From: an uncultured Gammaproteobacteria bacterium
GTDB lineage: Bacteria > Patescibacteriota > Microgenomatia > UBA8517
Direction: 5' to 3'
Assembly: GCA_964506225.1 (NCBI GenBank)
Contig: CAZDKH010000010.1
Location: forward strand, 23,019-87,018
DNA length: 64,000 nucleotides
Shown piece after piece: positions 1-30,280 of this stretch. Every line of letters starts with the position of its first letter. Position 1 is the first letter of the stretch. A model generated the notes under the pieces. That model saw only the letters and a list, made by a program, of their open reading frames with translations, made no database searches and was not told the DNA's origin. A program made the translations under genes and the position numbers.

Positions 1-845
1 ATAAGAAAAATCTCGGAGCCTCCGCCACCAGAAACAGGGCAGCTAAATTTGCGAAAGGTGAAGTCTTGGTTTTTTTGGATAATGACACCCAAGTTCGTCG
101 TGATTGGCTTTTAAAAATTGTTGAGCCTTTTATTGCTAAACCAAACATTGGAGGAGTCCAATCATTGCTTTTGGATATGGATAAAAAAGCTCTGATACAG
201 CATGCTGGTGCTATAATGCTTCCTCAGGTTGCCTGGGCAGTGCCTTTTTACCAATGGAAAAGCTATACCAAGACAAAAAGGTTGCTCAAAGAAAGACAGA
301 TAATTGCAGTTTCAGCAGCCTTGGCAGTTAGAAAAAAAGTTTTTGAAAAAATAGGAGGGTTTGACGAAAAAGAAGCAGTTTATACAGAGGACACTGATTT
401 TTCTTGGAGAGTTTGGATTGCTGGATATGAAGTTGTCTTGGCAAAAGATGCAATTGTTTATCATCTTGCAAAGTCGGTAACCGCCAGAGCGCACATGGGG
501 GGAAGTTACTATAAGATTTATTTTCATCTGGCCAAAAATTCTTTTCGTTCGATTATCAAAAATTATCAACTTAAAAATGTCTTGAAATATTTGCCGCAAA
601 GTGTGCTTGTGAATATCGGGCGGGGATTTCTAGTATTAATAAGAAGGGGGGAGCAATCTGCCCTACTGGCAAGCATCCGAGCAATATTTTGGAATTTTGG
701 TAATTTAAGTGATAATTTAAGACAAAGACACTTGGTTCAGTCCAAAAGACTTTTTTCTGACAAATTTATAATGGAAAAAGTGTTCGATCAGAGAAGTCTG
801 AATGAGATCTATCAAAGCTATTTTGTTCAAACAGGTCTAATATGA
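1..845 (+). CDS. Glycosyltransferase family 2 (GT-A), 5'-truncated by window edge
   Basis: The frame of ORF 66..845 stays open to the window edge; from nt 3 it reads KKNLGASATRNRAAKFAKGEVLVFLDNDTQV. The 'FLDNDT' DxD-type region and 'YTEDTDFSWR' are typical of GT2. The TGA stop overlaps the next start (ATGA). Confidence 0.8.
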   Translation, partial: KKNLGASATRNRAAKFAKGEVLVFLDNDTQVRRDWLLKIVEPFIAKPNIGGVQSLLLDMDKKALIQHAGAIMLPQVAWAVPFYQWKSYTKTKRLLKERQIIAVSAALAVRKKVFEKIGGFDEKEAVYTEDTDFSWRVWIAGYEVVLAKDAIVYHLAKSVTARAHMGGSYYKIYFHLAKNSFRSIIKNYQLKNVLKYLPQSVLVNIGRGFLVLIRRGEQSALLASIRAIFWNFGNLSDNLRQRHLVQSKRLFSDKFIMEKVFDQRSLNEIYQSYFVQTGLI

Positions 846-1714
846 TTTTTTTAAAATCAGTTAAGTACATATTTCTTAGCATTCTAAAATCAGCTAGTAA
901 AATTTTTCTTGGTAGTGGAATAGGTAGATACAAACTTATAGCTTGGTTTTATCATCTAGTTGTTCCCCTGTTACGGCCAGATTATGTAAAAGTTGATGGA
1001 CATATAATGTACCTAGACAAGAAGGACTCTTTATCCTTGTCTGTCTTGGGTTTCTATGAGCCTTCAGTTTCATGGGCTATTCAAAATGAAATTAAAAAGG
1101 GGATGACAGTTATTGATGTAGGCGCAAATATCGGTTACTTTACTTTACTAATGGCAAGATGTGTAGGTGCAAGTGGCAAGGTCTATGCCTTCGAGCCCGA
1201 TCCGGAAAACTTTAACCTTTTAAGAAAAAATGTCAGGATAAACGGATATAAGAATGTCATTTTAGTTAAAGCGGCGGTTGCTCGTAAGAAAGGTAAAATA
1301 GGGCTTTTTGTAAATGAAAATTCAAACGCTGAACATAGCATCTATAGCTTTTCTAAAAATCAAAAGAAAATCTTGGTTAATTCTTGGAGTTTGGATGAGT
1401 ACTTTAGCGACAAGGATAAAAAAGTTGATTTTGTTAAATTAGATATTCAAGGTGCCGAGCCGGAGGCTCTTTTGGGTATGAAAAAACTCATTAGAAAAAA
1501 TCCGAAAATTGAAATTTTAACTGAGGTTTGGCCTCTAGGGCTTGAAAAATCCAAAGTAACACCTGGTGAATTTATAGACAAACTAAGACTTTTAGGATTC
1601 AAAATTTGTTTATTGCGAGATGATAAAAAATATGTGAAAAAAGAATTTTCGAAAAAAAGTGCTCTTCTTAATCTTAGACATTACGGTTATTTGAATATTC
1701 TCTGTTATAGATGA
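842..1714 (+). CDS. FkbM-family SAM-dependent methyltransferase
   Basis: 'VIDVGANIGYFTLLMARCVGASGKVYAFEPDPENFNLLRKNVRINGY' matches the FkbM-type SAM-binding block. The gene is start/stop coupled to both neighbours. Confidence 0.8.
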   Translation: MIFLKSVKYIFLSILKSASKIFLGSGIGRYKLIAWFYHLVVPLLRPDYVKVDGHIMYLDKKDSLSLSVLGFYEPSVSWAIQNEIKKGMTVIDVGANIGYFTLLMARCVGASGKVYAFEPDPENFNLLRKNVRINGYKNVILVKAAVARKKGKIGLFVNENSNAEHSIYSFSKNQKKILVNSWSLDEYFSDKDKKVDFVKLDIQGAEPEALLGMKKLIRKNPKIEILTEVWPLGLEKSKVTPGEFIDKLRLLGFKICLLRDDKKYVKKEFSKKSALLNLRHYGYLNILCYR

Positions 1715-4700
1715 ATATGTTCATGAGAAAATTTTTTTTAAATAAAAACCCCATTGTCCTGCTTTTAGTTGTTTCAACTCTTCTGTCTCTTTTTTGGTTT
1801 AGAAACGGCAATATCATGGGGGTGGGGGAAAGTGGGTTGATTTTTTATGATTTCTCAAGAGTTCTTGATTTAGTGAGATTTAGCTGGGCTGAGTTTTGTC
1901 TAGGGAATGTTGTCGGTATAGTAACTGCGTCTGCGCCAACCTTTTGGTTTCTTTTGCAACTTCAAAATATAAAAATTCCAAATTTTCTTATACAAGCTCT
2001 ATTTATCAATTTTTCCTTTTTTATTTCTGGTTTGGGAGTTTACCTTTTGGTTGGCGAGCTTTTCCCAAACCTCAGTAAAAAATCCAGATTATTGTCTGCC
2101 TTTTTTTATCTTTTTAATCCTATTTCTTTAGTTAATGTTTGGACGAGATTTTTGTATAACTACATGTTTTTTATGGCCCTTTTACCCATCGCACTTTTTT
2201 TATTTTTGAAAGGTATTAGTTCTAAAGACTACCGCTTTGCGATATTAACTTCTTTGGCAACAGTATTTTTTTCATATTCCCTAACTTCCACGGTTTTTAA
2301 TTTTTTGCTTTGGTTTGTTTTGATTTTGGCGTTTTGTTTTTCTTTCTTTTGCGACAAAAAGGATTTCTTTTTTTATATAAAATATTTTTTTCTTACTTTG
2401 TTTAGTTTTCTTTTTTTTAATTCCTGGTGGTTGGGACAACTTTTGAGCTTTTTGTATTCAAGCGGGTATAAAGTGGCAGTGATGGAATTTTTCACTCAGG
2501 CAGGAAATATAGGAACACTAGTTACCTTAAGTGGTATTCTTGGTAAATTAAGCGAAATCTTTAGGTTTTCCCATAAAACTTTTTTCTCCAAGGGACCTTG
2601 GTGGGCAAAAATTTATAACCTTCCACCGATTGTTTTTTTGGAGTTTTTAATTTCCGGAATTGTCTTTTGGACGATTTTTAAATACAAGAGGATAAGAAAT
2701 ATTCTTTTTTGTGGAATTTTATTTCTACTGGCTGCTTTTTTGATGAAAGGTAGTGAGCCTCCATTGGGCTATATATTTCAACTTGCTTTTGAAAAACTTA
2801 GCATCCTTCAGGTTTTTAGAAATCCTTTTGAAAAATTTGGTTTCCTGTTTTCTTTGGCTTCGTCTTTAATTTTTGCTTTTGGAATAGAGAAAATTACACT
2901 TCTTTTAAAGAATCGAATTTACAAAAAGTTTGTTCTTTTCACCGCACTTTTTACAGTCTTGGTGGTCTGGGGTTTTCCATTTTTAACCGGCCTTGTTTTC
3001 ACTAGTAACGAGGGAACAAGTGATGATAAATTGGCTGATTACGAAGTTAAAGTTCCTTCTTATTATAAAGATGCTAATAACTGGCTTACAGAGGAAAACC
3101 CCGAATTTCGTTTTGTTTCCCTTCCAATTGATGGGGAGCCCATAAATTATTCTTGGGAAAAGCCTTATCGGGGGGTGGAGTTATCAACTACTTTATTTAA
3201 AAATCCAAACATATCTTTGAATACTTCTATCCCTTATTACAATAAGGTCGTAAGTGAGTTGGATTGGATTTTTCTAAATAATCATAATTTTGAGGAAGTT
3301 TTGAATGTTTTGGATGCAAGATATGTGATTAATAGGTTTGATATAGATTGGAAGAGACGTGGCATGAGAAATCCTGTTGTTGTTGAGGAACTTCTTAAGT
3401 CACAGGAAAATTTTGTCAAAGTTGCCTCTTTTGGAAAACTTGATTTTTGGAAGAGTAATTTAATAAACCCTTATGGAAAATTTTATGCAACACAAAAATT
3501 GGTAGAAAGCATTCCTTATCCCGCAATTTCAGATTTGGGATTTTATGAATTGAATTCAAAAGTCACCTTATACTCAGGGAGTAATCTAAAAGCGAATGAA
3601 AAAATTATTCACCCCTCGAGAAGATTTTATTTGGAATATCCTCCGGCAACTTTTTTTGAAGAAAGACAGGACATTTTTCCCCACGTGCGTTTTTTGCCTT
3701 CTTCGCCTTTTTACCCTTTTGTGTTGCTCAAAGAAAAAATTGAAAAACTTTTCATCAACGATAGTACTGAGCTTTCTGAGTGGATTTTAACTATTCTGGG
3801 CAAAAGACTCAACGAATTCAGACAGTCAGTTCAAAAAAAGAATTTTAAAGCTGCAGCACTTGCATTAAATCGCTATAGCAAGGAGCTTCAGGAATTTGGA
3901 ATTTTACAAAAGAAAGCTGGTTTAGTAAATGAAAGTTCAGATTATTCAGACAATTGGCTGCAGGAAAAAAATTATGGTCTTTTTGCAAGACACTTGGGTG
4001 TTTTATCCGAGGATTATCAGCTTGTTGGCACTAACGATTTATTGGAAAAAGTAAATACTACGAAAAGTTTACTCAAAGAAACACTCGTAGAATTGGGTAT
4101 TTCGCCAAAATTTGACTATATAGACAATGAGTCAATGCCAGTTGCCGGTAGAAAAACTTTCCAAGTTAGTGTGCCGGAAGACGGGGATTATGAATTGTTA
4201 ATTGATATGAAAAACTGGGATAAGTTTTATGAGATAGAAGGATTTGAAATACAGTTTCAAATTGACAATCAAGTGCTTTCTAAAGCTGGAAATGTTGGCA
4301 AAAATGGTATAGTTTCTTTTGGTAAGTTTAATTTTAGTAAGGGAGTTCATGAGATTGGCTTTAATACCCCCAAGCAGAAAAATTTGATTGATGCCCCAAC
4401 GGAATTTTCGATGGTCTCAAGCCAGGGAATTCAGGAAAAAGCATTTGAACTAAAAAATTTTGACCCTTACTCAGCCTATCAAATTAGTTTTGATTATCTG
4501 ATTAAAAAGGGTTCGGGAATCAAGATTTATTTTGAAGCTGATAATGACCGAGTTGTTGATGGCGAGGTTAAATACAGCTTCAGTAAATTTTTTGGTCCCG
4601 ATGAAAAAAACTACGATTTTGATTATAAGAAATATGTTTTAAACCTTACCCCCAATAGCGGGGCCACGAGTGCTAGAATTGGAGTGAGCGTGACTCCTTG

Positions 4701-5223
4701 GAATGACTGTTTTAGTATCTACAAAGGCTTATTTAGTTATGTTTGCAGAAACGAGTCTTTTAAACACAAGTACGATAAGACAACCGAAGTTGTTGTTAAA
4801 AACCTTAAAGTGCAAAAAGTACCCAATCCCAGATTATTTTTGCATTATTTAACAGACAAAACCAACACCAACATAAACGGAGAGCTTCCGATTATAACTT
4901 ACGACAAAATCAATTCAACCTTATATAAAGTCAAGGTTACCTCTTCCCGGGAGAAATACTATCTAATATTTTCCGAGCTTTTTAATTCTGGTTGGCAGGT
5001 TGAATTTCCTGACGGCCAAATCCTCTCCGAGGATAAACATTTTTTAGCAAACGGCTTTGCCAATGGATGGGAAATTGACCTTAAAGGTGATTATGAACTT
5101 CTGGTAAAATACGCGCCGCAGGATTTTCTGGAAAAAGGGAGTATTATCTCACTAATCTCTATTTTAGGAGGTATAGCTGTTTTGATTTATCAAACCCTTA
5201 TAAGAAGACATGCGAGTAATTAA
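1711..5223 (+). CDS. Giant polytopic membrane protein, GT-C-type glycosyltransferase-like (AftD/YfhO-like architecture)
   Basis: 1170-aa ORF. The N-terminal third is highly hydrophobic with many predicted helices and an early acidic loop, 'GESGLIFYDFSRVL'. A long soluble region follows, then a single C-terminal helix ('IISLISILGGIAVLIY') and a basic tail. The family was assigned from recall of the architecture, not from a search. Confidence 0.6.
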   Translation: MNMFMRKFFLNKNPIVLLLVVSTLLSLFWFRNGNIMGVGESGLIFYDFSRVLDLVRFSWAEFCLGNVVGIVTASAPTFWFLLQLQNIKIPNFLIQALFINFSFFISGLGVYLLVGELFPNLSKKSRLLSAFFYLFNPISLVNVWTRFLYNYMFFMALLPIALFLFLKGISSKDYRFAILTSLATVFFSYSLTSTVFNFLLWFVLILAFCFSFFCDKKDFFFYIKYFFLTLFSFLFFNSWWLGQLLSFLYSSGYKVAVMEFFTQAGNIGTLVTLSGILGKLSEIFRFSHKTFFSKGPWWAKIYNLPPIVFLEFLISGIVFWTIFKYKRIRNILFCGILFLLAAFLMKGSEPPLGYIFQLAFEKLSILQVFRNPFEKFGFLFSLASSLIFAFGIEKITLLLKNRIYKKFVLFTALFTVLVVWGFPFLTGLVFTSNEGTSDDKLADYEVKVPSYYKDANNWLTEENPEFRFVSLPIDGEPINYSWEKPYRGVELSTTLFKNPNISLNTSIPYYNKVVSELDWIFLNNHNFEEVLNVLDARYVINRFDIDWKRRGMRNPVVVEELLKSQENFVKVASFGKLDFWKSNLINPYGKFYATQKLVESIPYPAISDLGFYELNSKVTLYSGSNLKANEKIIHPSRRFYLEYPPATFFEERQDIFPHVRFLPSSPFYPFVLLKEKIEKLFINDSTELSEWILTILGKRLNEFRQSVQKKNFKAAALALNRYSKELQEFGILQKKAGLVNESSDYSDNWLQEKNYGLFARHLGVLSEDYQLVGTNDLLEKVNTTKSLLKETLVELGISPKFDYIDNESMPVAGRKTFQVSVPEDGDYELLIDMKNWDKFYEIEGFEIQFQIDNQVLSKAGNVGKNGIVSFGKFNFSKGVHEIGFNTPKQKNLIDAPTEFSMVSSQGIQEKAFELKNFDPYSAYQISFDYLIKKGSGIKIYFEADNDRVVDGEVKYSFSKFFGPDEKNYDFDYKKYVLNLTPNSGATSARIGVSVTPWNDCFSIYKGLFSYVCRNESFKHKYDKTTEVVVKNLKVQKVPNPRLFLHYLTDKTNTNINGELPIITYDKINSTLYKVKVTSSREKYYLIFSELFNSGWQVEFPDGQILSEDKHFLANGFANGWEIDLKGDYELLVKYAPQDFLEKGSIISLISILGGIAVLIYQTLIRRHASN

Positions 5224-5545
5224 ATTATTGATTTTTGCAGGTTTTGTAATTTTATTTTTGGGTCTTTTTGTTCTTCAGGCTTGGTTTAATATCACTAAGT
5301 CCGATTTTTCTTTGCAACCTCTTGTTTACTGGTTGGTTTTTGTTGTTTGGATTATGGTTTTGCTAAATTTCAGGCTCTCAAGCTCTTGGACTCTGGCAGC
5401 AGCTTTTGTCCTTTTTTTGCTCGCTGCAGCCTTGAGCACTTTGGGACATGCCGGAACTGGTGAGGCAACAATGAAAATAAGCTTTATTGGCTGGATAATA
5501 GGAATTATCCAAGCTTTAATTGAATATAAAAAGGGTCATGTTTAA
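5210..5545 (+). CDS. Small polytopic membrane protein (about 4 hydrophobic segments), unknown function
   Basis: 111-aa ORF made almost entirely of hydrophobic helices. It overlaps the stop of the giant upstream gene by 14 nt, which suggests translational coupling. Confidence 0.5.
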   Translation: MRVIKLLIFAGFVILFLGLFVLQAWFNITKSDFSLQPLVYWLVFVVWIMVLLNFRLSSSWTLAAAFVLFLLAAALSTLGHAGTGEATMKISFIGWIIGIIQALIEYKKGHV

Positions 5546-5723
5546 AAATAATCTCCCGGCGTTTTTTTTTACTCTGGCCATTCTTTTTCTTTTTGGAAGC
5601 TTGATATCTATTTTACTAGGCCACATGGGCTTTGCTTTAAGAGTATTTAAATATATTTATTTTACTTTGGTTGTCGGGGTTTTAATGTATATCTTAAGCA
5701 TCCGAAAATATGAAAAAAAATAG
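5538..5723 (+). CDS. Small 2-helix membrane protein, unknown function
   Basis: The ORF track starts at TTG 5520. The ATG at 5538 is preferred because it overlaps the upstream stop (ATGTTTAA) and is preceded by AAAAGGG. The protein has two hydrophobic segments and overlaps the next gene's start. Confidence 0.4.
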   Translation: MFKNNLPAFFFTLAILFLFGSLISILLGHMGFALRVFKYIYFTLVVGVLMYILSIRKYEKK

Positions 5724-8460
5724 GCTTCTTTTGATATTAGTACTTATTATTGTTTTTGGCCGGCTTTTTTTGCCGGGACCAAGGGCGGCCGGAGATTTCC
5801 CTTTTAGTTCTTCAGAGACGGTTAGGGAAGGATTTAATATACCTCAAGTTTGGTCGTCAAGAGGTAATGGTATGGGCAGATACGTTCTTTCTACTCTTTG
5901 GGCTTGGCCGGTTGATTTTTTATATGGAATGGGAGCTTTTTTGGGTTTAGATTTTTCTGTCCTTGAACGAATAATAGGCATTTTTCCGGTTCTTGTCTTT
6001 GGCATTTTTGGAATTTCAAGATTACTAAGACGCTTGGGGGTTTCTGGTATAGGAAAGATGGCTTCAATATTGGTGTATGTGGCTAATTCATATCTTATTT
6101 TACTTATAGATGGAGGACAACTTTCTGTCGCCATGGCCTATGCTTTTCTGCCATTGACTTTTTTGACTTTTGAGGATTCGCTTGAGGGAAACTTAAGAAA
6201 AAAAATTCTTGCAGGTCTTGCGGTATCTATTCTTGGATTTTTCGATTTAAGATTTGTCTTTGTTTTTTTATTGATTCTTCTTTTGAAATTTGTATATGAA
6301 TTATTATTTTTGCATTCCAGAGAATGGCCACACTTCTTACTAAGTTGGTTTAGAAGTGGTTTGGTTATCCTTCTTGTTATGGTTGGACTACATAGTTTCT
6401 GGATTTTTTCGTCTTTTTTGGCTAAACCTCCTCAATTGCCGGCAGGTTATCTTCGCAAAGAACAAACCCAGTTTTTGAATTTTGCAAACATTGGACATGC
6501 GACACTTTTATTGCAGCCCCACTGGTTTAAAAACGTCTTTGGCAAGGTTACTCATTTAAAAGCCGATTTTTTTCTTATACCTTTATTGGTTTTTTTAGCA
6601 CCCATTCTCAGAAAGAGGGATAAAACACTTGGTTTTTGGTTATTTGTTTTACTGGTTGGTATTTTTTTAGTCAAGGGTTCAAACCCTCCACTGTCAGAAA
6701 TTTATGCTTGGCTTTTTACTAACATAGCTGGATTTTCTTTTTTTCGTGACTCGACTAAATTCTTTGTTTTAATTGCGCTATCATATTCTGTTCTTGTTGG
6801 GATTGCGGTAAACGAGTTGAACAAGAAGATTGCTTGGTTAGCAAGGTTTTTGCCTTTGGGGATTTTTTTGTACTTTGTAATTATTATGCGACCGGTGTGG
6901 TTGGGGAAGATGACCGGGATGTTTTCTTTACCGGTTTATCAAAAAGAATTTTCATTTTTAGAAAACGTTTTAAAATCCGATGAGAATTGGGGCAGAGTAC
7001 TTTGGATTCCTACCAGATTTCCAATGGGATATTCTTCTTTACAACACACTGCTCTCTCGGCAACTGATTTAACAGAAATTCGGCCATTTATTACAGGAAA
7101 CGTTGGCACGTATGAGATATTTAATTTTATTCGCGAATCCAAATTTGTAAGTCAGCTTTTTGATGTTGCCGGGATTTCTTATGTTGTTTATCCTTATCCT
7201 GACGAAAGAAGAGAAGATTTAAACGAGGACGAAAGAGAGTATTATCAAATCTTTTTGAATCAATTGGTAAGTTTGGATTGGCTTAGCGTCATTAAAAATG
7301 AGAGCAAAGTTCCGATATTAAAAACCCTGAAACACCAAAATCATATTTTTGTGGCTCCGAAATTTTGGTGGGTAGTTGGTTCTGACCGAATTTATTCTGA
7401 TTTGGTATCAATAAAAGATTTTGATTTATCCAAAAACGCCATTATCTTTTTGGAAGAAAATACAGATCTTTTTGGTAAATTTATTAAATATCCAAACTCA
7501 AAAGTTATTTTATACGATAAAAATACAATTGATTTGGCAGTAAGCTCTTTGGACTCTGAAGACCTGATTTTCCCAGCTAAAAACTTGACCCTATCTCCTA
7601 ATGATAGTGGCTGGTGGAAAAGAGAAGCTTCGGATTTTCTCAGTTGGCGATTTTTTTTGCAGGAGAAATATGGTGTTGATAATCTTGACTTTGATTTATC
7701 GGGCGGATGGGCAGTCGGAGAAGGAAATTTAAGCCTAAAAATTAAGAATGCGAAGTTGAAAAAAGGAACTTTGTTATTAGCCAGAGTAATGGAAAGTTCA
7801 AAGGGGGGAGTTATTCGATTTTATCAAGATTCAAAACTGATAGGTGAAGTTAATACTTTACTAACTGCTCCTAAGAAAATTGAAATCAAACTTACAGGTT
7901 ATCAGGACGTCCCCGACAAATATTTTATTTATGACGAGGCAAATATCAGATGGTTTGAGATAGGCAAACTGGAAAGTAGCGGTGAAATTACAATTGAAGT
8001 TAGTGGAGGTATAAATGTTCTTAATGCCCTTGTTGGTATTGAAGAGCAAAGATGGGAACTTCTTAAAAGGAATGTTCAAGATCTTGTTACAAACGCTAAG
8101 GCTTTATTTTGGAGCGACCTTTCTGATAACGAGAAAATTAGTCTATTTACAATAAAAGAAATCCCTGAAGTTGAGTACCTAAGGAAAAACCCCACCGAAT
8201 ACTGGGTAAAAGTTAAAGGACTCAAAGAGCCATCATTTCTGATTTTATCTGAACAATATGATAAATTCTGGCAAATGAATGAAGTTTCATCTCTCCCAGC
8301 TTATAGCTTTTTAAATGCTTTCATGGTGGAAAAAGATGGCTTTTATAAAATTTATTATTCTCCCCAAAAGTATGTTCTACCAGGTCTTGTTATCAGTGGT
8401 TTTTCATTGATACTTGCTAGTGCTATATTAGTAAAGCTTCACAATAAAAAACGGGTATAA
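5710..8460 (+). CDS. Giant polytopic membrane protein, GT-C-type glycosyltransferase-like (second copy of the architecture)
   Basis: 916-aa ORF with the same layout as 1711..5223. It has a hydrophobic N-terminal half with an early 'AAGDFPF' loop, a soluble C-terminal half, and a terminal helix ('LVISGFSLILASAILV') with a basic tail. Confidence 0.55.
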   Translation: MKKNRLLLILVLIIVFGRLFLPGPRAAGDFPFSSSETVREGFNIPQVWSSRGNGMGRYVLSTLWAWPVDFLYGMGAFLGLDFSVLERIIGIFPVLVFGIFGISRLLRRLGVSGIGKMASILVYVANSYLILLIDGGQLSVAMAYAFLPLTFLTFEDSLEGNLRKKILAGLAVSILGFFDLRFVFVFLLILLLKFVYELLFLHSREWPHFLLSWFRSGLVILLVMVGLHSFWIFSSFLAKPPQLPAGYLRKEQTQFLNFANIGHATLLLQPHWFKNVFGKVTHLKADFFLIPLLVFLAPILRKRDKTLGFWLFVLLVGIFLVKGSNPPLSEIYAWLFTNIAGFSFFRDSTKFFVLIALSYSVLVGIAVNELNKKIAWLARFLPLGIFLYFVIIMRPVWLGKMTGMFSLPVYQKEFSFLENVLKSDENWGRVLWIPTRFPMGYSSLQHTALSATDLTEIRPFITGNVGTYEIFNFIRESKFVSQLFDVAGISYVVYPYPDERREDLNEDEREYYQIFLNQLVSLDWLSVIKNESKVPILKTLKHQNHIFVAPKFWWVVGSDRIYSDLVSIKDFDLSKNAIIFLEENTDLFGKFIKYPNSKVILYDKNTIDLAVSSLDSEDLIFPAKNLTLSPNDSGWWKREASDFLSWRFFLQEKYGVDNLDFDLSGGWAVGEGNLSLKIKNAKLKKGTLLLARVMESSKGGVIRFYQDSKLIGEVNTLLTAPKKIEIKLTGYQDVPDKYFIYDEANIRWFEIGKLESSGEITIEVSGGINVLNALVGIEEQRWELLKRNVQDLVTNAKALFWSDLSDNEKISLFTIKEIPEVEYLRKNPTEYWVKVKGLKEPSFLILSEQYDKFWQMNEVSSLPAYSFLNAFMVEKDGFYKIYYSPQKYVLPGLVISGFSLILASAILVKLHNKKRV

Positions 8461-8466
8461 TTATAG

Positions 8467-11287: not shown

Positions 11288-11386
11288 GATGTAAAAAAAC
11301 TGCTTGAGGAAACGAACTTCCCCATGCTTTTGAAGATTTATCCTTCTTCTTGTGGTAATTAAAGATAAAAATGTACAATAGTTGAA

Positions 11387-12097: not shown

Positions 12098-12099
12098 TT

Positions 12100-19571: not shown

Positions 19572-20083
19572 TGAAGATTCTAGTCGCTATTTTTATATTT
19601 TTTATAACTGCTATCTACCTTATAGTGCCTAGTCCCGATTTTCCACCTCCTCCTCCGGACTCAGTTCGTTCTTCAGAACCTGCGGACACAGAGTCGCCAC
19701 TTAGGAGAGCGTATTTTACAAATATGTCTCGGGAAGAAGTTATAAATTTTTATAGAAAAAGCTTTGACGGGAATACCCGTTTTTTTTCCATAAGGCTTAA
19801 TTACCCACCGGAGGAAGCCCAGACAATAATCAGAGACCAAACAAGAAGTACTTATTTAGAAGAAATTGTTCACCCTTTGCGTGAAACAATTTACATAAAT
19901 GGCTTTGAGCCAAAAGAAAAAAAGGATGAGATTTGGTATGAGGGTAAGCACTTTAGGCAAAAAGTTATAGTTAGGTATGTACCCAGTAGCTCAATTACCA
20001 GGTTGTCTATATGGTTTTGTACATTTGTAATTGGATATTTTATTTTTAAAGAATTAACTAATTTTTGTAATTTGAAAAAATGA
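19571..20083 (+). CDS. Hypothetical protein with N- and C-terminal hydrophobic helices
   Basis: 170-aa ORF with an N-terminal helix followed by 'PDFPPPPPDS'. No family was recognised. Confidence 0.4.
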   Translation: MKILVAIFIFFITAIYLIVPSPDFPPPPPDSVRSSEPADTESPLRRAYFTNMSREEVINFYRKSFDGNTRFFSIRLNYPPEEAQTIIRDQTRSTYLEEIVHPLRETIYINGFEPKEKKDEIWYEGKHFRQKVIVRYVPSSSITRLSIWFCTFVIGYFIFKELTNFCNLKK

Positions 20084-24220: not shown

Positions 24221-25347
24221 AAATAGCTATAGATGGTCGTTTTTATGGTTTGGAAAACGCGGGATTGGGTAGATATACCATTGGCCTTGTTGAAAATTTA
24301 AAGACTCTTGACCAAAAAAACAGTTATACGATTCTCTTGACCGAGAAGTATTTCCAGAAATTAAGCTTTCCCAAAAACTGGAAAAAGATAGCTGTTAGCT
24401 TTAGACACTACAGTCTCAAAGAACAGTTGGAGCTTCCCAAAATAATTAACCAAGAAAATCCAGATTTGGTGCATTTTTTGCATTTTAACATCCCAATAAC
24501 CTACAAAGGAAAATTTGTGGTTACGATACACGATCTTTTGATGCACAGACAAAAAGGGAAAGAGGCTACAACTCTTCCTTTTTTGGCCTATAAAATCAAA
24601 AGATTGGCTTATCATCTTGTTTTCAAAAAAGCAGTTTTTGGTTCAAGAAAAATAATCGTCCCCAGCAATTTTGTGAAAGAAGATCTTGTAAATTATTATC
24701 GCATTCCCCAAAAAAAGATTGAAGTCGTCTATGAAGGTGTTGATCATTTTTTGCGATCTGTGGACGCAGGGAAAAAGGTTCTTAATAAATATCAAATTAA
24801 TCTTCCTTACTTTATTTATTCAGGCAACGCCTATCCCCATAAAAACCTCAAAAGGGCAGTCGAGGCGATTTACTTTCTGAATAAGGCAAGTTCAAAAAGA
24901 TTTTTGTTTGTCATTGTTTCCTCAAGAAATGTTTTCGTCAAGAGGTTGGAGAGGATGATTAAATCAATTGGAGGAGAAAAGTATGTAAGGCTTATCGGAT
25001 TTGTTCCTGATAATGACTTGGTGTATTTATATAAAAATTCGCTTGGCTTTTTGTATCCTTCTTTATCAGAAGGATTTGGTCTTCCAGGATTGGAAGCTAT
25101 GGCCGCCGGCACACTAGTTTTGGTGTCGGATATCCCAGTTTTTCATGAGATTTATGAGAATCAGGCAATATATTTTAATCCTTATGACTTTTCAGCAATC
25201 GAAAGAGAAATGAGGAATGTAGTTGAGATGGACCCAAAAAAAAGGCAAAAACTTATTTCTTCTGGACAAAAATTTGTTAAAAGATACTCTTGGATAAAAA
25301 TGGCAAAAAAGACTTTAAAGATCTACAAGGATGTTTTAGAGAACTGA
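24217..25347 (+). CDS. GT4 glycosyltransferase
   Basis: 'PSLSEGFGLPGLEAMAAGTLVLVSDIPVFHEI'. The start is an ATGA overlap. Confidence 0.85.
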   Translation: MKIAIDGRFYGLENAGLGRYTIGLVENLKTLDQKNSYTILLTEKYFQKLSFPKNWKKIAVSFRHYSLKEQLELPKIINQENPDLVHFLHFNIPITYKGKFVVTIHDLLMHRQKGKEATTLPFLAYKIKRLAYHLVFKKAVFGSRKIIVPSNFVKEDLVNYYRIPQKKIEVVYEGVDHFLRSVDAGKKVLNKYQINLPYFIYSGNAYPHKNLKRAVEAIYFLNKASSKRFLFVIVSSRNVFVKRLERMIKSIGGEKYVRLIGFVPDNDLVYLYKNSLGFLYPSLSEGFGLPGLEAMAAGTLVLVSDIPVFHEIYENQAIYFNPYDFSAIEREMRNVVEMDPKKRQKLISSGQKFVKRYSWIKMAKKTLKIYKDVLEN

Positions 25348-25363
25348 GAGAGTCTAAAGAAAT

Positions 25364-26443
25364 ATGAAAGTTGCGCTTGTTTATGATAGGGTAAATAAGT
25401 GGGGAGGGGCTGAGAGGGTTCTTTTAACTCTTCACGAGATTTTTCCACTTGCCCCTCTTTTTACTTCTGTCTGTAACATCCAAAAGGCCAAGTGGGCGAG
25501 CACTTTTCCTCAGATTTTTTGCAGCTTTTTACAAAAAATTCCCTTTGCCAAAGATAACCATGAATATCTTCCCTTTTTGATGCCTTTGGCTTTTGAATCG
25601 TTTAATTTTGATGATTATGATTTGGTGATTTCGGTTACCAGTGAAGCTGCGAAGGGAATAATTACAAAGCCTTCTACTAAACATATTTGTTATTGTTTGA
25701 CACCGACAAGGTATCTTTGGAGTGGTTATAAACTTTACTTTAAGAGTAAGCTTTTGAAATTTTTAGCAAGGCCGGTTGTTAACTATCTTAAAAAATGGGA
25801 TAGAATTGCCGCTCAGAGGCCCGATGTAATGATTGGCATATCAAACGCTGTTTGTAAAAGAATAGAAAAGTATTATAAAAGAAAAGCAAATCTCATTTTC
25901 CCGCCAGTTAATTTAGATATTAAATCTAAAGAAATTAAAAAGAAAGAGGATTATTTTTTGGTTGTTGGTAGATTGGTGAAATACAAAAGAGTTGATTTGG
26001 TGGTGCGTGTTTTTAATAAACTTGGTTTTCCTTTGGTAATTGTTGGTGAGGGAAAAGAGGAGAAGAAATTAAAGGCCATGGCCTCGACCAACATTAGTTT
26101 TATAAAAAAATTGACAGATGACGAGCTTATAAATTACTATAAGAAATGCCGTGCGGTTATTTTTGCTCAGGAGGAAGATTTTGGACTTGTTGCTGCAGAG
26201 GCACAGGCTTGTGGAACACCTGTAATTGCTTATAAAAAAGGAGGAATAAAAGACATTGTAATTGATGGGAAAACGGGTATTTTTTTTGACAAACAGACAG
26301 AAGACTCGCTGGAGAGTGCTTTATTAAAGTTTGAAAAAGTAAATTTTAACCAGAGTTTTATAATGGGCCAAGGGGGTAAGTTTACAAAAGAGAGATTTAA
26401 AGCGGAGTTGTCACGAATCATAAAAAGGTATGTTGGAAAGTGA
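25364..26443 (+). CDS. GT4 glycosyltransferase
   Basis: 'EEDFGLVAAEAQACGTPVIAYKKGGIKDIV'. Confidence 0.8.
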   Translation: MKVALVYDRVNKWGGAERVLLTLHEIFPLAPLFTSVCNIQKAKWASTFPQIFCSFLQKIPFAKDNHEYLPFLMPLAFESFNFDDYDLVISVTSEAAKGIITKPSTKHICYCLTPTRYLWSGYKLYFKSKLLKFLARPVVNYLKKWDRIAAQRPDVMIGISNAVCKRIEKYYKRKANLIFPPVNLDIKSKEIKKKEDYFLVVGRLVKYKRVDLVVRVFNKLGFPLVIVGEGKEEKKLKAMASTNISFIKKLTDDELINYYKKCRAVIFAQEEDFGLVAAEAQACGTPVIAYKKGGIKDIVIDGKTGIFFDKQTEDSLESALLKFEKVNFNQSFIMGQGGKFTKERFKAELSRIIKRYVGK

Positions 26444-27548
26444 ACTTAAAAAACATCTTTATGCCCTTATTATTGTTGGGGGTGGTGGAACACGGCTTTG
26501 GCCAAAATCCAGAAATTCTACCCCAAAACAGTTTTTAAAACTATTCAAAGGTAAAACATTGGCGCAAATTACTTCTGAAAGATTACAAAAATTTATTGCT
26601 CCCGAGAGGATTTTTGTGGTAACTACAACTGAAGAATACAAAAAAGAATTTATAAGAGAGGTACCCTTTATAAAGCCTGAGAATGTTATTGATGAACCGC
26701 TGAGAAGAAATACTGCTCCCGCCCATGGACTTGGCGCAATATATATCCATAAAAAAGACCCTGAAGCAGTAATTATTAATGCCTATTCTGATCAACTTGT
26801 TGATCCCGAACATGAGTATATTAAAAACATAGAAACCGCCGCGTTTGCCGCCTTTAGCGGGGATTGGCTTGTTGCAGTAGGAGTAAAACCAACCTACCCA
26901 AATCCCGGCTATGGACACATCAAAAAGGGTGGTAAATGGAGAGTGTTTCAACGAAAGACGCTTTACAAAGTCAATCGCTTTACCGAAAAACCGGCTTTGG
27001 AACTTGCGAAGCGTTACACAGCCTCGGGTGAGTATTTTTGGAATGCTGGTCAGTATGTTTGGAGAGCAGATAGTTTTTTGCGCGCCCTAGAGCGTTTTGA
27101 ACCCTCGATTTTTAAGGGATTGCAAAGAATTGGTCAGGCAATCAATACCCCAGAAGAAAGAAAAGTTATGCTTTATGAGTATAAAAAAATGCCGGAAATT
27201 TCAGTTGACTACGCAGTTTCCGAGCGGGCGAAAAATTTTGTGATGTTGGTGGCTGATTTTCACTGGATAGATGTTGGAGATTGGAAAGAGGTTTGGGAGA
27301 ATTTACCCAAAGACGATCAAGGAAATGTCATAATCGATGGTGCTCAGAAAGGTGGGGAAGTGATAAATATTGATACCTCAGATGCTCTTATTCACACCGA
27401 TGGACGTGTAATAGCTGTGATAGATGTGGATAATGTGGTTATTGTTGATACCAAAGAGGCACTTTTGGTTTGTGCAAAAAGTAAAGCGCAAAATGTCAAA
27501 AAGATTGTTGAAGAACTAAAAAGAAAGGGAAGAAAGGAACTGCTTTGA
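26430..27548 (+). CDS. manC: Mannose-1-phosphate guanylyltransferase (no C-terminal PMI domain)
   Basis: 'ALIIVGGGGTRLWPKSRNSTPKQF' is the nucleotidyltransferase G-rich loop. 'FWNAGQYVW' and 'SVDYAVSE' are typical of ManC/CpsB. Confidence 0.85.
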   Translation: MLESELKKHLYALIIVGGGGTRLWPKSRNSTPKQFLKLFKGKTLAQITSERLQKFIAPERIFVVTTTEEYKKEFIREVPFIKPENVIDEPLRRNTAPAHGLGAIYIHKKDPEAVIINAYSDQLVDPEHEYIKNIETAAFAAFSGDWLVAVGVKPTYPNPGYGHIKKGGKWRVFQRKTLYKVNRFTEKPALELAKRYTASGEYFWNAGQYVWRADSFLRALERFEPSIFKGLQRIGQAINTPEERKVMLYEYKKMPEISVDYAVSERAKNFVMLVADFHWIDVGDWKEVWENLPKDDQGNVIIDGAQKGGEVINIDTSDALIHTDGRVIAVIDVDNVVIVDTKEALLVCAKSKAQNVKKIVEELKRKGRKELL

Positions 27549-27571
27549 AATTTTTAGTAAAATGAAGTAGT

Positions 27572-27577: not shown

Positions 27578-27593
27578 ACCCACCTGCCCGAAT

Positions 27594-28232
27594 ATGTTGT
27601 ATGACATTACTAAAAGAACGATAGACATAGTGGGGTCACTGTTTCTTTTAGTTTTCTTTTTTCCCGTACTTGTCGTAACAGCAATTCTTATCAAAGCCAC
27701 TTCAAAAGGCCCTGTTTTTGCAGATACACCTGCAAGAGTTGGGAAAGATGGAAAGCTTTTTTACCCCTTAAAGTTTAGGTCAATGATTGTAAATGCACAC
27801 ACACTTCTTAAAACAGACCCAAAATTCAAAAAGTTATACAAGGAATATAAAAAATCAAGTTATAAGCTTTTTGATGATCCGAGGGTGACCCCTGTCGGCA
27901 AATATATCCGGCGCCATTCTATTGATGAGATACCCCAGCTTATCAATGTTCTCAAGGGAGAAATGAGTATTGTTGGACCAAGGCCCTATTACCCGGATGA
28001 ATTGGAAGAGCAACAAAAACGTTACCCCAAAACAAGAAAACTTGTTAAGGAGGTTCTGTCAATAAGGCCAGGTATCACGGGTTTTTGGCAGGTTTCCGGT
28101 AGAAGTAACATCAATTTTGATAAAAGAATCGAAATGGATGCTTATTATGCGCGTAAAAGGTCAATACTTTTGGATATTTTAATTCTTCTTAAGACTCCAT
28201 GGGTTATGATTTCAGGGGTTGGTGCTGTATAG
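27594..28232 (+). CDS. Small monotopic phosphoglycosyl transferase (bacterial sugar transferase family, WbaP C-terminal-domain type)
   Basis: 'KRTIDIVGSLFLLVFFFPVL', 'LKFRSM', 'DEIPQLINVLKGEMSIVGPRP' and 'RPGITGFWQVSGR' are hallmark motifs of this family. Confidence 0.85.
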   Translation: MLYDITKRTIDIVGSLFLLVFFFPVLVVTAILIKATSKGPVFADTPARVGKDGKLFYPLKFRSMIVNAHTLLKTDPKFKKLYKEYKKSSYKLFDDPRVTPVGKYIRRHSIDEIPQLINVLKGEMSIVGPRPYYPDELEEQQKRYPKTRKLVKEVLSIRPGITGFWQVSGRSNINFDKRIEMDAYYARKRSILLDILILLKTPWVMISGVGAV

Positions 28233-28255
28233 TATATTAAAAAATTTTAACTATT

Positions 28256-30280
28256 ATGAGTGATGACTTTGAAATTATTAGAAAAATCAACCTTGAATCT
28301 AAAAAGAAGTCTGAGGCTTCAAATTTTGCTCCCAATTTGAAGGAGTTAGACACGAATGAAAAGCCTCAGTCCTTACCGGGTAAAAAAAATAAATCCAAAA
28401 AGCTCTTGAAATTTTTTTTGGGAGCCTTTTTTATCTTGGTTTTGGTCTTGATAATTTGTGTTTTGTTTATCGTCAGACCGCTTTTGAAGGTTTATGAAGA
28501 TGTAGAAAAATTGGCCAAAAACGCTAATGAGGTACAGGCAATTATGGATTCTCCGGATATTCAAAAAATCAAACAACAAGCCAAAATTATTCGGGAAAAC
28601 CTAGCCTCTCTTGAAAATTCTGTAAACTATTTTTCCTGGACCAAAAACTTACCAATTCTAGGTAGGTATTATTCTGACTTCCAGTCAGCTATTAGAGCCG
28701 GTTTTTACGGTCTTGATGCAGCAGATATTGCCATTTCCACAGTTGAGCCTTACGCCGACATAATTGGGCTTACGCCAAATAAGGACGGGGCAAAAAGTGG
28801 CGAAGAAACAGCCAATGACAGAATTGAATTTGTTATTCAGACACTTGAAGAGGTAATTCCTAAAATAGAGGAAATCTCATCAAAGGTGGTTAAAGTCCAA
28901 GAGGAAATTGACAAGATAGACCCCTCTTTTTATCCGGAAAAAATTAGAGACTTTAAAGTAAGGGAAAAGATAATCAAAATAGTCAGTCTTGTTGATGAGG
29001 GCGCAAAAATACTTTCAGACGCAAAGCCGCTTTTGCAAAAAGCTCCTTATCTTATTGGCTTGGACGCGCCACGCACATATCTTGTTCTTTTTCAAAATGA
29101 TAAGGAACTGCGCCCCACCGGAGGCTTTATTACAGCCTACTCAATTATGACAGTTGATAAGGGTAGGATGCGTCCCGTATCCTCAAACGACATTTATAAT
29201 TTGGACTCTCGCTATACGCCAGTTGTTCCAGCGCCTGAAGTTTTGCGCAAATACCTTAAGGGGCCGTATATCCTTTCAAAAAATTATCGTTTGAGAGATA
29301 TGAATTTTGCTGCCGACTTTAAAGAAAGTATGGCTCTTTTCACGAAAGAAGCAGAAAAGGTTGGTATTAGAGATATTGATGGAGTGATTGCTGTTGATAC
29401 AGAAGTGGTGGTGAGAATCTTGGAGGTTGTTGGCAAAATCGGTGTTCCGGGATTTGGAAATTTCAGCACAGAGATAATTCCTGAGTGTGATTGCCCTCAG
29501 GTTGTATATGAACTTGAGAGTTTTGCCGACATTGAAGGTCCGGTTGTTTGGAGTCAGGATGAGCCAGATAAGATTATCTACGCTCCTCCAAATTATGACA
29601 ATCGCAAAAAGATTGTGGGGCCACTCATGAACTCGGTTATTGCTAATGCTTTGGGACAGCCTAAGGAGAAAGTTCCGTCTCTAACCCGGGTCGCATGGGA
29701 CCTTCTTACCCAAAAACATGTTCTTTTGTATCTAAAAGATGAAGAAGCACAAAAAGCAGCTGAGGCTTTTAATATTGCCGGTAGAATTTCAGATTTTGAT
29801 GGAGACTATCTTCATATTAATGATGCCAATCTTGGAGGGAGGAAATCAAATCTTTATGTAACCCAAGAGGTCCATCAGGAAATTTTAGTTTCCCAAGACG
29901 GATCTATCGAAAAGACTCTTGAAATTACTTATAAGAACCCCAAAAGCTATGATGGCTGGTTAAACTCCGTTCTACCAAACTGGACTAGAATATACGTACC
30001 CAGGGGCTCTCAATTAATTTCAGTTACAGGTTTTGACCAGCAGGGTGAAGCCTATGAAGAATATGGTAAAACGGTGTTTTCGGGAGGATTTCAACTTCGT
30101 CCGGAAGGAGTAGTTAAAATTACCATAAGGTATAAACTTCCCTTTAAGGCCAATAAAAACTATAATCTGTTAATTCAAAAGCAGCCAGGTACCGCTTCCC
30201 CTCTTTACACCTTAAAAGCTGGCAAATTTGAAGACGAGTTTTTTCTTTGGACAGACAGAAAGATAAAGCTTTCTTTATAG
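28256..30280 (+). CDS. DUF4012-like membrane-anchored extracytoplasmic protein
   Basis: 674 aa with an N-terminal Lys-rich segment, one TM helix and a large ectodomain. 'FQNDKELRPTGGFITAYS' matches what I recall as the DUF4012 core. The assignment is from recall only. Confidence 0.6.
   Translation: MSDDFEIIRKINLESKKKSEASNFAPNLKELDTNEKPQSLPGKKNKSKKLLKFFLGAFFILVLVLIICVLFIVRPLLKVYEDVEKLAKNANEVQAIMDSPDIQKIKQQAKIIRENLASLENSVNYFSWTKNLPILGRYYSDFQSAIRAGFYGLDAADIAISTVEPYADIIGLTPNKDGAKSGEETANDRIEFVIQTLEEVIPKIEEISSKVVKVQEEIDKIDPSFYPEKIRDFKVREKIIKIVSLVDEGAKILSDAKPLLQKAPYLIGLDAPRTYLVLFQNDKELRPTGGFITAYSIMTVDKGRMRPVSSNDIYNLDSRYTPVVPAPEVLRKYLKGPYILSKNYRLRDMNFAADFKESMALFTKEAEKVGIRDIDGVIAVDTEVVVRILEVVGKIGVPGFGNFSTEIIPECDCPQVVYELESFADIEGPVVWSQDEPDKIIYAPPNYDNRKKIVGPLMNSVIANALGQPKEKVPSLTRVAWDLLTQKHVLLYLKDEEAQKAAEAFNIAGRISDFDGDYLHINDANLGGRKSNLYVTQEVHQEILVSQDGSIEKTLEITYKNPKSYDGWLNSVLPNWTRIYVPRGSQLISVTGFDQQGEAYEEYGKTVFSGGFQLRPEGVVKITIRYKLPFKANKNYNLLIQKQPGTASPLYTLKAGKFEDEFFLWTDRKIKLSL

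Follow-up and report, generated by a model that had tools for sequence, protein, structure and literature searches.

Envelope glycan assembly systems and the Microgenomates locus

In multi-component transmembrane glycosylation, a polyprenyl-phosphate sugar is the product of a GT-A glycosyltransferase (GT) that is either membrane-linked or free of transmembrane segments. A flippase (of the Wzx type in the Gac and Wps systems) takes it across the membrane, and a GT-C enzyme of the PMT_2 type transfers the sugar outside (PMC8035078). Described systems include GacI/J/K/L of S. pyogenes, WpsA/B/G/J with WpsH/I for the polysaccharide pellicle (PSP) of L. lactis, CsdAB/CD/EF-CflA, and GtsABC for the secondary cell-wall polymer (SCWP) of B. 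anthracis. There is precedent for an SCWP that is built through Wzx and Wzy with GT-C steps (PMC8035078), and a dual-chain model has been put forward for L. lactis, in which GT-Cs polymerise and anchor an oligosaccharide that has been assembled on a monophosphate lipid (PMC10821137). Here we describe a ~30-kb glycan locus that combines such parts in a bacterium of the candidate phyla radiation (CPR). It lies in a 64-kb stretch of contig CAZDKH010000010.1 (positions 23,019 to 87,018, forward strand; assembly GCA_964506225.1), referred to below as the window.

One segment of the locus, module B, has the same parts list as these systems, with GT-A synthases (PPS1 and PPS2) and GT-Cs predicted. 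It differs from them in several respects: i) no homolog of GacJ/WpsB (DUF2304), the small membrane activator that goes with TM-less synthases, or of the flippase GtrA was detected, and the 111-aa 4-TM protein fits no family; ii) the window holds no rhamnan (Rml/Rgp) genes, ABC exporter or LCP ligase; and iii) five GT-Cs, two of them AftD-type, stand in a single array. Statements on components that were not found cover the open reading frames (ORFs) scanned in the 64-kb window, i.e. most of those of at least 100 aa.

The arabinogalactan and lipoarabinomannan machinery of Mycobacteriales (AftD, AftA-C, EmbA-C, the polyprenyl-P-mannose synthase Ppm1, GT-C mannosyltransferases and PimA/B-type GT4s) is also similar. 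Several GT-Cs are clustered for one envelope heteropolysaccharide, and DPM1-like lipid-sugar synthases together with GDP-mannose-dependent GT4s feed cytoplasmic and then outside steps. The AftD-type architecture, with an N-terminal GT-C part, a beta-sandwich ectodomain resembling carbohydrate-binding modules (CBM) and a C-terminal transmembrane (TM) part, is shared as well (bioRxiv 10.1101/2019.12.22.885152). The window proteins are, however, shorter than mycobacterial AftD (916 and 1170 aa vs a mean of ~1381), carry a single C-terminal TM segment where AftD has five, and show ~10% identity to it in structural alignment. A core of Wzx, Wzy_C and a small polyprenyl-phosphate hexose-1-phosphate transferase (PGT) stands in place of the GlfT-type galactan synthesis. 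The published AftD survey found homologs within Actinobacteria (bioRxiv 10.1101/2019.12.22.885152), whereas the host here is a CPR bacterium. AftD2, the shorter of the two window proteins, also partially matches MmpA of Corynebacterineae (NCgl2761/Rv0226c), a 474-aa protein that acts in trehalose-lipid transport.

With the Wzx/Wzy pathways for O-antigen, capsule and exopolysaccharide that carry Gtr-type decoration, the locus shares a PGT, a MOP flippase, a Wzy_C protein, multiple GT2s and GT4s, an O-acetyltransferase and ManC. It differs from them in that the window has no Wzz/PCP, tyrosine kinase or outer-membrane export components, and in that the locus is conserved across phylum-level lineages rather than hypervariable between strains.

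All parts are of known kinds. What sets the locus apart is a conserved array that combines them with at least five GT-Cs, and the occurrence of AftD-type enzymes in a CPR lineage, including one branch without a Pfam model; NCBI already names some Daviesbacteria homologs AftD family. No predicted product of the window is recognisable as a chain-length, ligase or small-flippase component of the usual kind.

To our knowledge, almost nothing is known of the envelope chemistry of CPR bacteria (Patescibacteria), which are thought to live attached to other cells. A glycan assembly line of ~30 kb, whose order is conserved across several candidate phyla, is a concrete candidate for a major surface polymer, and the locus probably builds a major cell-surface polysaccharide of Microgenomates. 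It accounts for a few percent of a genome of roughly 1 Mb (a small size expected from taxonomy). The analysis extends AftD-type GT-C enzymes to a CPR lineage, defines a large Pfam-less family, and provides marker genes as well as targets for lectin, antibody or phage-receptor studies on uncultured Microgenomates. No published account of the cluster was found in the literature on CPR/Patescibacteria/Microgenomates and on GT-C and envelope glycosyltransferases; Meheust et al. 2019 noted only DUF4012 and unnamed membrane families as enriched in CPR and Microgenomates (PMC6744442).

Gene order and conservation across Microgenomates

According to the ORF listing and junction analysis, bases 3-30280 of the window are filled by 26 back-to-back ORFs, all on the + strand and without interruption. 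Twenty-five are at least 100 aa long and one (5538-5723) encodes 61 aa. Neighbouring ORFs of at least 100 aa overlap at 15 of their 24 junctions (-1 to -58 nt when ORF starts are set mechanically). The 61-aa ORF occupies the 164-nt gap from 5545 to 5710, the next-largest gaps are 99, 86 and 45 nt, and the coding density of the cluster is ~0.99. A first-pass annotation of this DNA, made from the letters alone, had likewise counted 26 consecutive, mostly overlapping + strand genes. Three ORFs absent from its list (5210, 5538 and 19571) are conserved members of the cluster. Families were called by Pfam, NCBIfam and PDB searches and TM segments by hydropathy; these searches reproduced every family that it had named (GT2, GT4, FkbM, LbH, Wzx, Wzy, PMT_2, ManC, PGT and DUF4012).

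A scan with the AftD2 family, taking one genome per species, recovered 66 loci. The named hosts are Woese-, Davies-, Ames-, Levy- and Gottesmanbacteria, all within the Microgenomates group, and further hosts are labelled 'Microgenomates group' or 'Patescibacteria group' bacteria. When the ORFs of the relatives were labelled by their best BLASTP match to window proteins, the order in most was GT2 - AftD1 (1-2 copies) - (4-TM protein) - AftD2 - Wzx - GT2 - PPS2 - GT4 - GT2 - PMT2a - PMT2b - GT4 - GT4. In 55 of 60 loci the gene directly before AftD2 encodes AftD1 or the 4-TM protein, and in 44 of 59 the gene directly after it encodes Wzx. PMT2c, an enzyme of the second half of the cluster, served as the anchor of a metagenome scan that yielded at least 559 relatives; in the 42 metagenome loci of at least 9 kb, this second half hardly varies. 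The acetyltransferase is followed by the 170-aa ORF in all 37 relatives (41-59% identity for the latter), Wzy_C lies directly upstream of PMT2c in 41 of 41, and GT4d lies downstream of PMT2c in 40 of 41. PGT and DUF4012 are adjacent in 29 of 29 and DUF4012 and RecO in 25 of 25, with GlyRS next after RecO wherever the locus extends that far. Protein identities across the relatives are 35-75%.

Many of the cluster-bearing species-representative records (L002, L006-L010, L015, L016 and others) are titled 'uncultured Gammaproteobacteria bacterium isolate binchicken/SRP...'; on Microgenomates-type loci such titles appear to be placeholders or taxonomic errors.

An assembly artefact can be dismissed. 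GC content is even along the cluster (genes 0.33-0.40) with no break, window positions 798-5124 and 5002-17665 have identical counterparts in two JGI contigs that were assembled separately, and over 100 independent assemblies show the same arrangement of genes. Horizontal mobility and a lower GC content are common among glycan clusters, and this one does stand at 0.359 against 0.382 in the remainder of the window. A chimera, or a recently acquired strain-variable island of the O-antigen or capsule kind, would nevertheless have to be reconciled with the missing GC break, with the identity of the two contigs over 798-17665 and with an order that includes the housekeeping neighbours RecO and GlyRS in over 100 independent assemblies at 35-75% protein identity. 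We regard it as having a negligible chance of being correct and reject it on the GC and synteny data, which also answer the doubt about a chimera raised in the first-pass annotation. The same pattern of order and divergence is that of vertical inheritance, and by these sequence comparisons the array is a vertically inherited, lineage-wide feature of Microgenomates, not a strain-variable island. The shared direction of its genes does not set the cluster apart: nearly the entire 64-kb window is on the + strand, with GC skew positive throughout.

The comparison also indicates that the locus is modular. Module A consists of GT2, methyltransferase, AftD1, the 4-TM protein and AftD2; module B of Wzx, PPS, GT2, GT4, PMT2a and PMT2b; and module C of GT4s, acetyltransferase, Wzy_C, PMT2c, GT4s, ManC, PGT and DUF4012. 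Levy- and Gottesmanbacteria have a shorter version without the block from Wzx to PMT2a/b, in which the order is AftD2 - (PPS) - GT4b - GT4c - acetyltransferase - GT2 - Wzy (~1000 aa) - PMT2c - GT4d; the GT4b-GT4c pair is retained even there. The Wzy_C homologs of L057, L060, L061, L064, L065 and L067 are 1000-1090 aa long (at about 16-20 kb in each locus). At about twice the 464 aa of the window protein, the Levy-/Gottesmanbacteria form would contain an extra domain or a fusion. The numbers of AftD-like and GT2 genes vary among relatives. Many relatives hold extra AftD-like copies, and up to six GT-C-like ORFs were seen in the sampled loci of up to 23 kb. The number of GT-Cs in the array, described as unusual in the first-pass annotation, is indeed so against bacteria generally; within the lineage the array is the norm, its gene order being kept across at least five Microgenomates candidate phyla.

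The GT-C enzymes

AftD1 matches PF11847 (GT-C_AftD) at 41.9 bits against a cutoff of 26 over residues 77-577 and carries DUF5667 at 662-729. Its ~8 N-terminal TM segments are followed by a large ectodomain, which includes the helical DUF5667 part, and by a C-terminal TM anchor (1145-1163). Many of its homologs carry PF11847, and some, including several of Daviesbacteria, are named 'alpha-(1->3)-arabinofuranosyltransferase family' by NCBI. Long AftD1 orthologs in 11 relatives are followed by homologs of the 111-aa 4-TM protein (29-40% identity), with W41, F69 and E85 invariant. When this protein and ten homologs were searched against Pfam at E<=5, no family could be assigned, GtrA, SMR and DUF2304 included, nor was there an NCBIfam match.

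AftD2 itself has no Pfam match. Its residues 288-441 give a local NCBIfam match to MmpA (1.3e-11), which at 43.8 bits lies well under the equivalog cutoff of 210. Profile-profile comparison of the AftD2 family (a 38-sequence alignment) with the AftD1 family by hhalign gives a probability of 100% and E 1.3e-38 over 526 columns. The AlphaFold2 model (pLDDT 87.6, pTM 0.85) has ~10 N-terminal TM segments, a CBM-like beta-sandwich ectodomain and a C-terminal helix at 884-915. M. abscessus AftD (6w98) is its best PDB match in Foldseek (E 1.6e-12, probability 1.0, TMq 0.48), followed by AftA and EmbA/B, and the beta-sandwiches of the modelled ectodomain resemble CBM6- and CBM35-type modules. AftD2 is thus, by profile and predicted fold, a paralogue of AftD1 and an AftD-type GT-C. 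Its family is large: the alignment profile, run against 1.84 billion representatives of 50%-identity clusters, matches 8275 of them at E<=1e-3 and 1731 at E<=1e-30.

Two of the remaining GT-Cs, PMT2a and PMT2c, match PF13231 (PMT_2) at 51.6 and 54 bits against a cutoff of 26.1. PMT2b itself has no Pfam match, but a PMT_2 match (best 1.6e-9) is found in 23 of 31 members of its family, and others match DUF2079 or GT87. Its AlphaFold2 model has a pLDDT of 91.1, and the 35 best Foldseek PDB matches are all GT-C, among them STT3, AglB, PglB, ArnT (TM-scores 0.63/0.55), ALG9, ALG12, AftA, DPY19 and Pmt4. The hhalign comparison of the PMT2b and PMT2c families is weak (probability 29%, E 5.7e-4), so that membership of PMT2b is argued from the per-member Pfam scan and the fold search.

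All five candidates have 8-10 N-terminal TM segments by hydropathy, a layout also seen in the AlphaFold2 models of AftD2 and PMT2b. Family alignments show conserved acidic residues just after the first TM helix: D29 of AftD2 (invariant), E40 of AftD1 (nearly invariant), E30 and D50 of the PMT2b family and D50 and D58 of the PMT2c family (all four invariant). In PMT2c the last two belong to an invariant motif, D50-W-H-S-x-R-Q-x-D58-T, directly after the first predicted TM segment, and in the AftD2 and PMT2b models the conserved acidic residues fall in the first outside loop. Essential D41 of AftD has been listed among the residues around its putative active site (bioRxiv 10.1101/2019.12.22.885152). 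In sequence searches against the PDB, phmmer found nothing for AftD2, PMT2b or AftD1, and their family HMMs gave nothing relevant, only coiled-coil noise on the DUF5667 region; the catalytic residues of AftD are therefore not mappable by sequence. Together, the profile and model comparisons place AftD1 (1711), AftD2 (5710), PMT2a (13906), PMT2b (15348) and PMT2c (21527) in the GT-C fold. The first-pass annotation had been sure of PMT2a and PMT2c and had left the placement of 1711, 5710 and 15348 to profile searches; all three are placed, through PF11847, through hhalign and Foldseek, and through family PMT_2 matches and Foldseek, respectively.

The name arabinofuranosyltransferase D should not be transferred to AftD1 or AftD2. 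AftD takes its sugar from decaprenyl-phospho-arabinofuranose and binds an acyl carrier protein. No UbiA, DprE1 or DprE2 gene, as needed for that donor, is present among the scanned ORFs, which makes an arabinofuranose donor unlikely.

Sugar donors

PPS1 and PPS2 are TM-less GT2s. The best PDB match of PPS1 is the Dol-P-Man synthase of P. furiosus (5mlz), followed by ArnC; PPS2 matches 5mlz (3.7e-18), ArnC (5e-16) and GtrB (2e-11). In NCBIfam, PPS1 matches AglJ (6e-23) and PpgS (2e-18), and PPS2 matches AglJ (1e-31), PgfS, Dol-P-hexose transferase, PpgS and ArnC, in both cases over the full length and under the equivalog cutoffs. These matches support assignment of both proteins, which the first-pass annotation had taken for soluble polyprenyl-phosphate sugar synthases, to that clade as predicted members, without naming the sugar. 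PPS2 is kept in most relatives at 51-66% identity. PPS1 occurs in few (L004, L009, L012, L015 and L024), at 72-77% identity in four and 50% in L015. The higher values are much above those of neighbouring genes, which may reflect recent spread or strong constraint.

The nucleotidyltransferase in the position of ManC in relatives (L068-L143) falls into two identity classes relative to the window protein, ~51-61% and 27-44%. The two classes suggest that a non-orthologous gene has taken this place in some relatives, and the sugar that is activated may therefore vary from lineage to lineage.

Proposed pathway and alternative explanations

We consider it fairly probable that the region holds most of a lineage-conserved locus for a complex cell-envelope heteropolysaccharide, i.e. 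an SCWP or a lipoglycan-like glycan. In such a pathway ManC would provide GDP-mannose, and the small PGT would prime polyprenyl phosphate with hexose-1-phosphate. On the cytoplasmic face a lipid-linked oligosaccharide would be grown from nucleotide sugars by the six GT4s and the three ordinary GT2s, and the FkbM methyltransferase and the WcaF-type acetyltransferase would modify it. Wzx would carry the oligosaccharide outward, where the Wzy_C protein would polymerise or ligate it. In parallel, PPS1 and PPS2 would load sugars on polyprenyl monophosphate, mannose being most likely for at least one of them. Once flipped, these lipid-linked sugars would be the donors for the five outside GT-Cs, three of the PMT_2/ArnT type and two of the AftD type. 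The CBM-like ectodomains of the AftD-type enzymes would hold the polysaccharide acceptor during branching or extension, and DUF4012 and the small membrane proteins (111, 61 and 170 aa) are putative accessory factors. Module B may work as in the lactococcal PSP, an oligosaccharide on polyprenyl monophosphate being transferred or polymerised by GT-Cs.

The combination of cytoplasmic lipid-linked assembly with outside GT-C steps, which the first-pass annotation had proposed, is the natural reading of the predicted families. Its description of the GT-C steps as decoration may understate their role, as CBM-like ectodomains of the AftD type are typical of polysaccharide-acting enzymes. It is from these ectodomains that a polysaccharide acceptor is argued, as was proposed for AftD (bioRxiv 10.1101/2019.12.22.885152). 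We also count the dcw/mur peptidoglycan cluster, 5.5 kb downstream, in favour of an envelope heteropolysaccharide. Module B is separable and its parts list is like that of GacI/J/K/L and the lactococcal PSP, which makes dual-chain assembly a serious sub-hypothesis. A more far-reaching version is offered tentatively, as it seems to us rather less probable than not. It holds that the locus directs an unrecognised, lineage-defining major envelope polymer, arabinogalactan- or lipoglycan-like and dual-chain: one chain built by PGT and Wzy and another built on polyprenyl monophosphate would be joined and branched outside by at least five GT-Cs, among them the CPR-specific Pfam-less AftD branch. In this version the conservation of the locus, its synteny with housekeeping genes and its nearness to dcw would make the polymer a central element of structure or host attachment in these episymbiont-like cells.

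A number of points weigh against the heteropolysaccharide pathway as drawn. It rests on family assignments, and each step is inferred from them. An AftD-like fold does not guarantee catalysis: MmpA, reported to be partly homologous to AftD over the first 668 residues of the latter, has no known transferase activity (PMC8698533). No LCP-type ligase, sortase substrate, Wzz/PCP, ABC exporter or GtrA-type flippase was found in the window, which leaves attachment and donor flipping unexplained, and no DUF2304 (GacJ/WpsB) protein either. The Wzy_C protein is a candidate polymerase, ligase or O-oligosaccharyltransferase (O-OTase), roles that its sequence does not separate. Sugar identities are not deducible from sequence either, and mannose may not be universal, given that the protein in the ManC position of many relatives is only 27-39% identical. 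Finally, the modules may serve different products, as Levy- and Gottesmanbacteria lack module B including Wzx. A CpsBCD module was likewise not found among the scanned ORFs; the slot beside the PGT is held by the DUF4012 protein.

The variation in modules leads to the view that two or three independent pathways lie side by side: a PGT/Wzy polymer (module C), a polyprenyl-monophosphate glycan or decoration (module B), and an AftD system (module A) that acts on another polymer, e.g. a lipoglycan. Levy- and Gottesmanbacteria do hold A and C without the Wzx to PMT2b block, PPS1 is patchy, the numbers of AftD-like and GT2 genes vary, and in L. lactis separate chains and decoration systems serve different polymers (PMC8035078, PMC10821137). 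Against this, the modules of the Woese-/Daviesbacteria type are contiguous, co-directional and mostly overlapping with no unrelated genes between them, and the window has a single Wzx, a single PGT and a single NDP-sugar enzyme for all of them. We judge separate pathways to be unlikely. The first-pass annotation had proposed that one locus encodes both parts together; given its modularity and the shorter version of Levy- and Gottesmanbacteria, it may make a single product or several.

The Wzy_C domain (1.6e-10) is common to WaaL, Wzy and the PglL/PilO O-OTases. The cluster might serve mainly protein O-glycosylation of pilins, S-layer or other surface proteins, with the Wzy_C protein as a PglL/PilO-type O-OTase that moves the whole lipid-linked glycan onto protein and the PMT_2 GT-Cs as protein O-mannosyltransferases that draw on polyprenyl-phosphate mannose. 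The PMT_2 matches of three proteins, the presence of ManC and DPM1-like synthases, a Gram-positive-like cell without a lipid A-core acceptor for a WaaL-type ligase, and the abundance of type IV pili in CPR cells (PMC6744442) would fit, and so would PF02366 (PMT, GT39) in PMT2c. That match (0.002, 18.2 bits) is nevertheless under its cutoff of 22.7, and the PMT_4TMC domain (PF16192) that would mark GT39 is matched by no protein of the cluster. ArnT-like enzymes that act on lipids and glycans also belong to PF13231, a broad GT-C family. The best structural matches of PMT2b are oligosaccharyltransferases and ArnT, with Pmt4 only at rank 29. The CBM-like domains of the two AftD-type enzymes speak for polysaccharide acceptors, the 11 cytoplasmic GTs suggest a large glycan, and none of the genes in the cluster codes for a candidate acceptor protein. 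Protein glycosylation as the main purpose is accordingly given a low probability.

Features and boundaries of the locus

The individual ORFs are listed in Table 1. The five GT2 genes lie at 3-845, 9702, 10445, 11387 and 13173 and the six GT4 genes at 12040, 16709, 17803, 23027, 24217 and 25364. The first-pass annotation had started two genes at 9729 and 21557; their mechanical ORF starts are 9702 and 21527, a difference of start-codon choice only.

Table 1. ORFs of the glycan locus, in window coordinates
Feature	Coordinates	Strand	Evidence or remark
GT2, 5'-truncated	3-845	+	Pfam Glyco_trans_2_3 6.5e-11, C-terminal part of profile only
FkbM-family SAM methyltransferase, candidate sugar O-methyltransferase	842-1714	+	Pfam Methyltransf_21 1.1e-21; NCBIfam fkbM_fam 1e-32, above cutoff
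AftD1, AftD-type GT-C, 1170 aa	1711-5223	+	Pfam PF11847 GT-C_AftD 4.4e-11
Small 4-TM membrane protein, 111 aa	5210-5545	+	Hydropathy; candidate partner, flippase or activator
61-aa ORF	5538-5723	+	Gene call on identical JGI contig; one weak homolog, in L050; gene status uncertain
AftD2, AftD-like GT-C, 916 aa	5710-8460	+	hhalign to AftD1 family; AlphaFold2 model and Foldseek
Wzx-type MOP flippase	8467-9732	+	Pfam Polysacc_synt 7.3e-16, Polysacc_synt_3 4.7e-10; 10 TM segments
PPS1, TM-less GT2, polyprenyl-phosphate sugar synthase clade (predicted)	9702-10448	+	PDB 5mlz 2.5e-11
GT2b	10445-11287	+	Pfam Glycos_transf_2 1.9e-08; position after Wzx conserved
PPS2, TM-less GT2, polyprenyl-phosphate sugar synthase clade (predicted)	11387-12097	+	PDB 5mlz 3.7e-18
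GT4a	12040-13176	+	Pfam Glycos_transf_1 1.8e-28, Glyco_transf_4
GT2c	13173-13922	+	Pfam Glycos_transf_2 1.3e-15
PMT2a, PMT_2/ArnT-type GT-C	13906-15369	+	Pfam PMT_2 1.6e-13; 9 TM segments
PMT2b, divergent GT-C, ArnT/STT3-like fold	15348-16712	+	Family Pfam scan; AlphaFold2 model and Foldseek
GT4b	16709-17791	+	Pfam Glycos_transf_1 4.9e-25
GT4c	17803-18930	+	Pfam Glycos_transf_1 1.2e-37
WcaF-type left-handed beta-helix O-acetyltransferase	18927-19571	+	Pfam Hexapep 2.4e-16; NCBIfam WcaF family 1.4e-30
170-aa protein	19571-20083	+	N-terminal TM segment, hydrophobic C-terminal stretch
Wzy_C-domain polytopic protein, 464 aa	20170-21564	+	Pfam Wzy_C 1.6e-10; 11 TM segments
PMT2c, PMT_2/ArnT-type GT-C	21527-23023	+	Pfam PMT_2 2.9e-14; 10 TM segments
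Three GT4s	23027-24220, 24217-25347, 25364-26443	+	Pfam Glyco_trans_1_4, Glycos_transf_1, Glyco_transf_4; order kept in relatives
Mannose-1-phosphate guanylyltransferase (ManC), without PMI domain	26430-27548	+	Pfam NTP_transferase, ManC_GMP_beta-helix
Small polyprenyl-phosphate hexose-1-phosphate transferase (PGT), WbaP C-terminal-domain type	27594-28232	+	Pfam Bac_transf 1.3e-59
DUF4012 protein, large ectodomain	28256-30280	+	Pfam DUF4012 5.1e-23; single N-terminal TM segment at 55-73

Some assignments can be refined. ManC matches NCBIfam GMP_PMI (5.3e-84) over residues 2-352 of 467, and the PGT matches EPS_sugtrans (1.7e-73), WbaP (3.6e-71) and RfbP (2.9e-65). The 170-aa protein has no Pfam or NCBIfam match, and the Wzy_C protein has no NCBIfam match and no PDB sequence match. 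The DUF4012 protein is a putative auxiliary protein of envelope-polysaccharide assembly; its family has been described as enriched in CPR and Gram-positives (PMC6744442).

The frame of the first GT2 is open from base 3, and its DxD motif (DND) lies right at the window edge. The gene is thus truncated at its 5' end by the start of the window, and the left end of the cluster lies outside it. Exact-protein look-ups gave short contigs only, so the left boundary is inferred from relatives, several of which carry an ortholog of this GT2 (48-60% identity) upstream of AftD1. The window covers most of the cluster, and the locus probably continues leftwards. Upstream of AftD1, relatives have more GT2, methyltransferase and GT2-methyltransferase fusion genes (L003 4179-6155; L039 2085-3596). 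From the fusions and the extra methyltransferases, methylated sugars seem to be a conserved theme. A scan of the cluster found no tRNA and no Rfam element inside it; scans for promoter and terminator consensus sequences gave counts near shuffled expectation and no clear operon boundaries.

Downstream of the cluster follow RecO, GlyRS, a 250-aa protein without a family, and a fusion of an AsnRS core with MGS. Between the 250-aa protein and the fusion gene, ~940 nt (33195-34132) contain short ORFs only (<=87 aa) and have no tRNA and no Rfam match. The fusion protein (34133-35614, - strand, 493 aa) consists of an AsnRS/AsnA-like class II core without an anticodon-binding domain and a C-terminal MGS-like domain. 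It is unusual, and may be an amino-acid ligase or a paralog of the asparagine-synthetase type, not a tRNA ligase.

The dcw/mur cluster is complete (35840-53577). It contains mraZ, mraW, ftsI, murA, murC, murB, mraY, ftsW, murG, ftsA and ftsZ and three further genes of the Mur-ligase family, in which only murC was given a name; murA and murB are also within the cluster. A 233-aa ORF in the position of FtsQ (50388-51089) has no Pfam or NCBIfam match. IleRS, RodA and ParB come after the dcw/mur cluster. A further GT2 (61896-62849), with PgaC/MftF-like matches, is found at the right-hand end, where tRNA-Val (61801-61873) and an RdgB/HAM1 pyrophosphatase immediately precede it.

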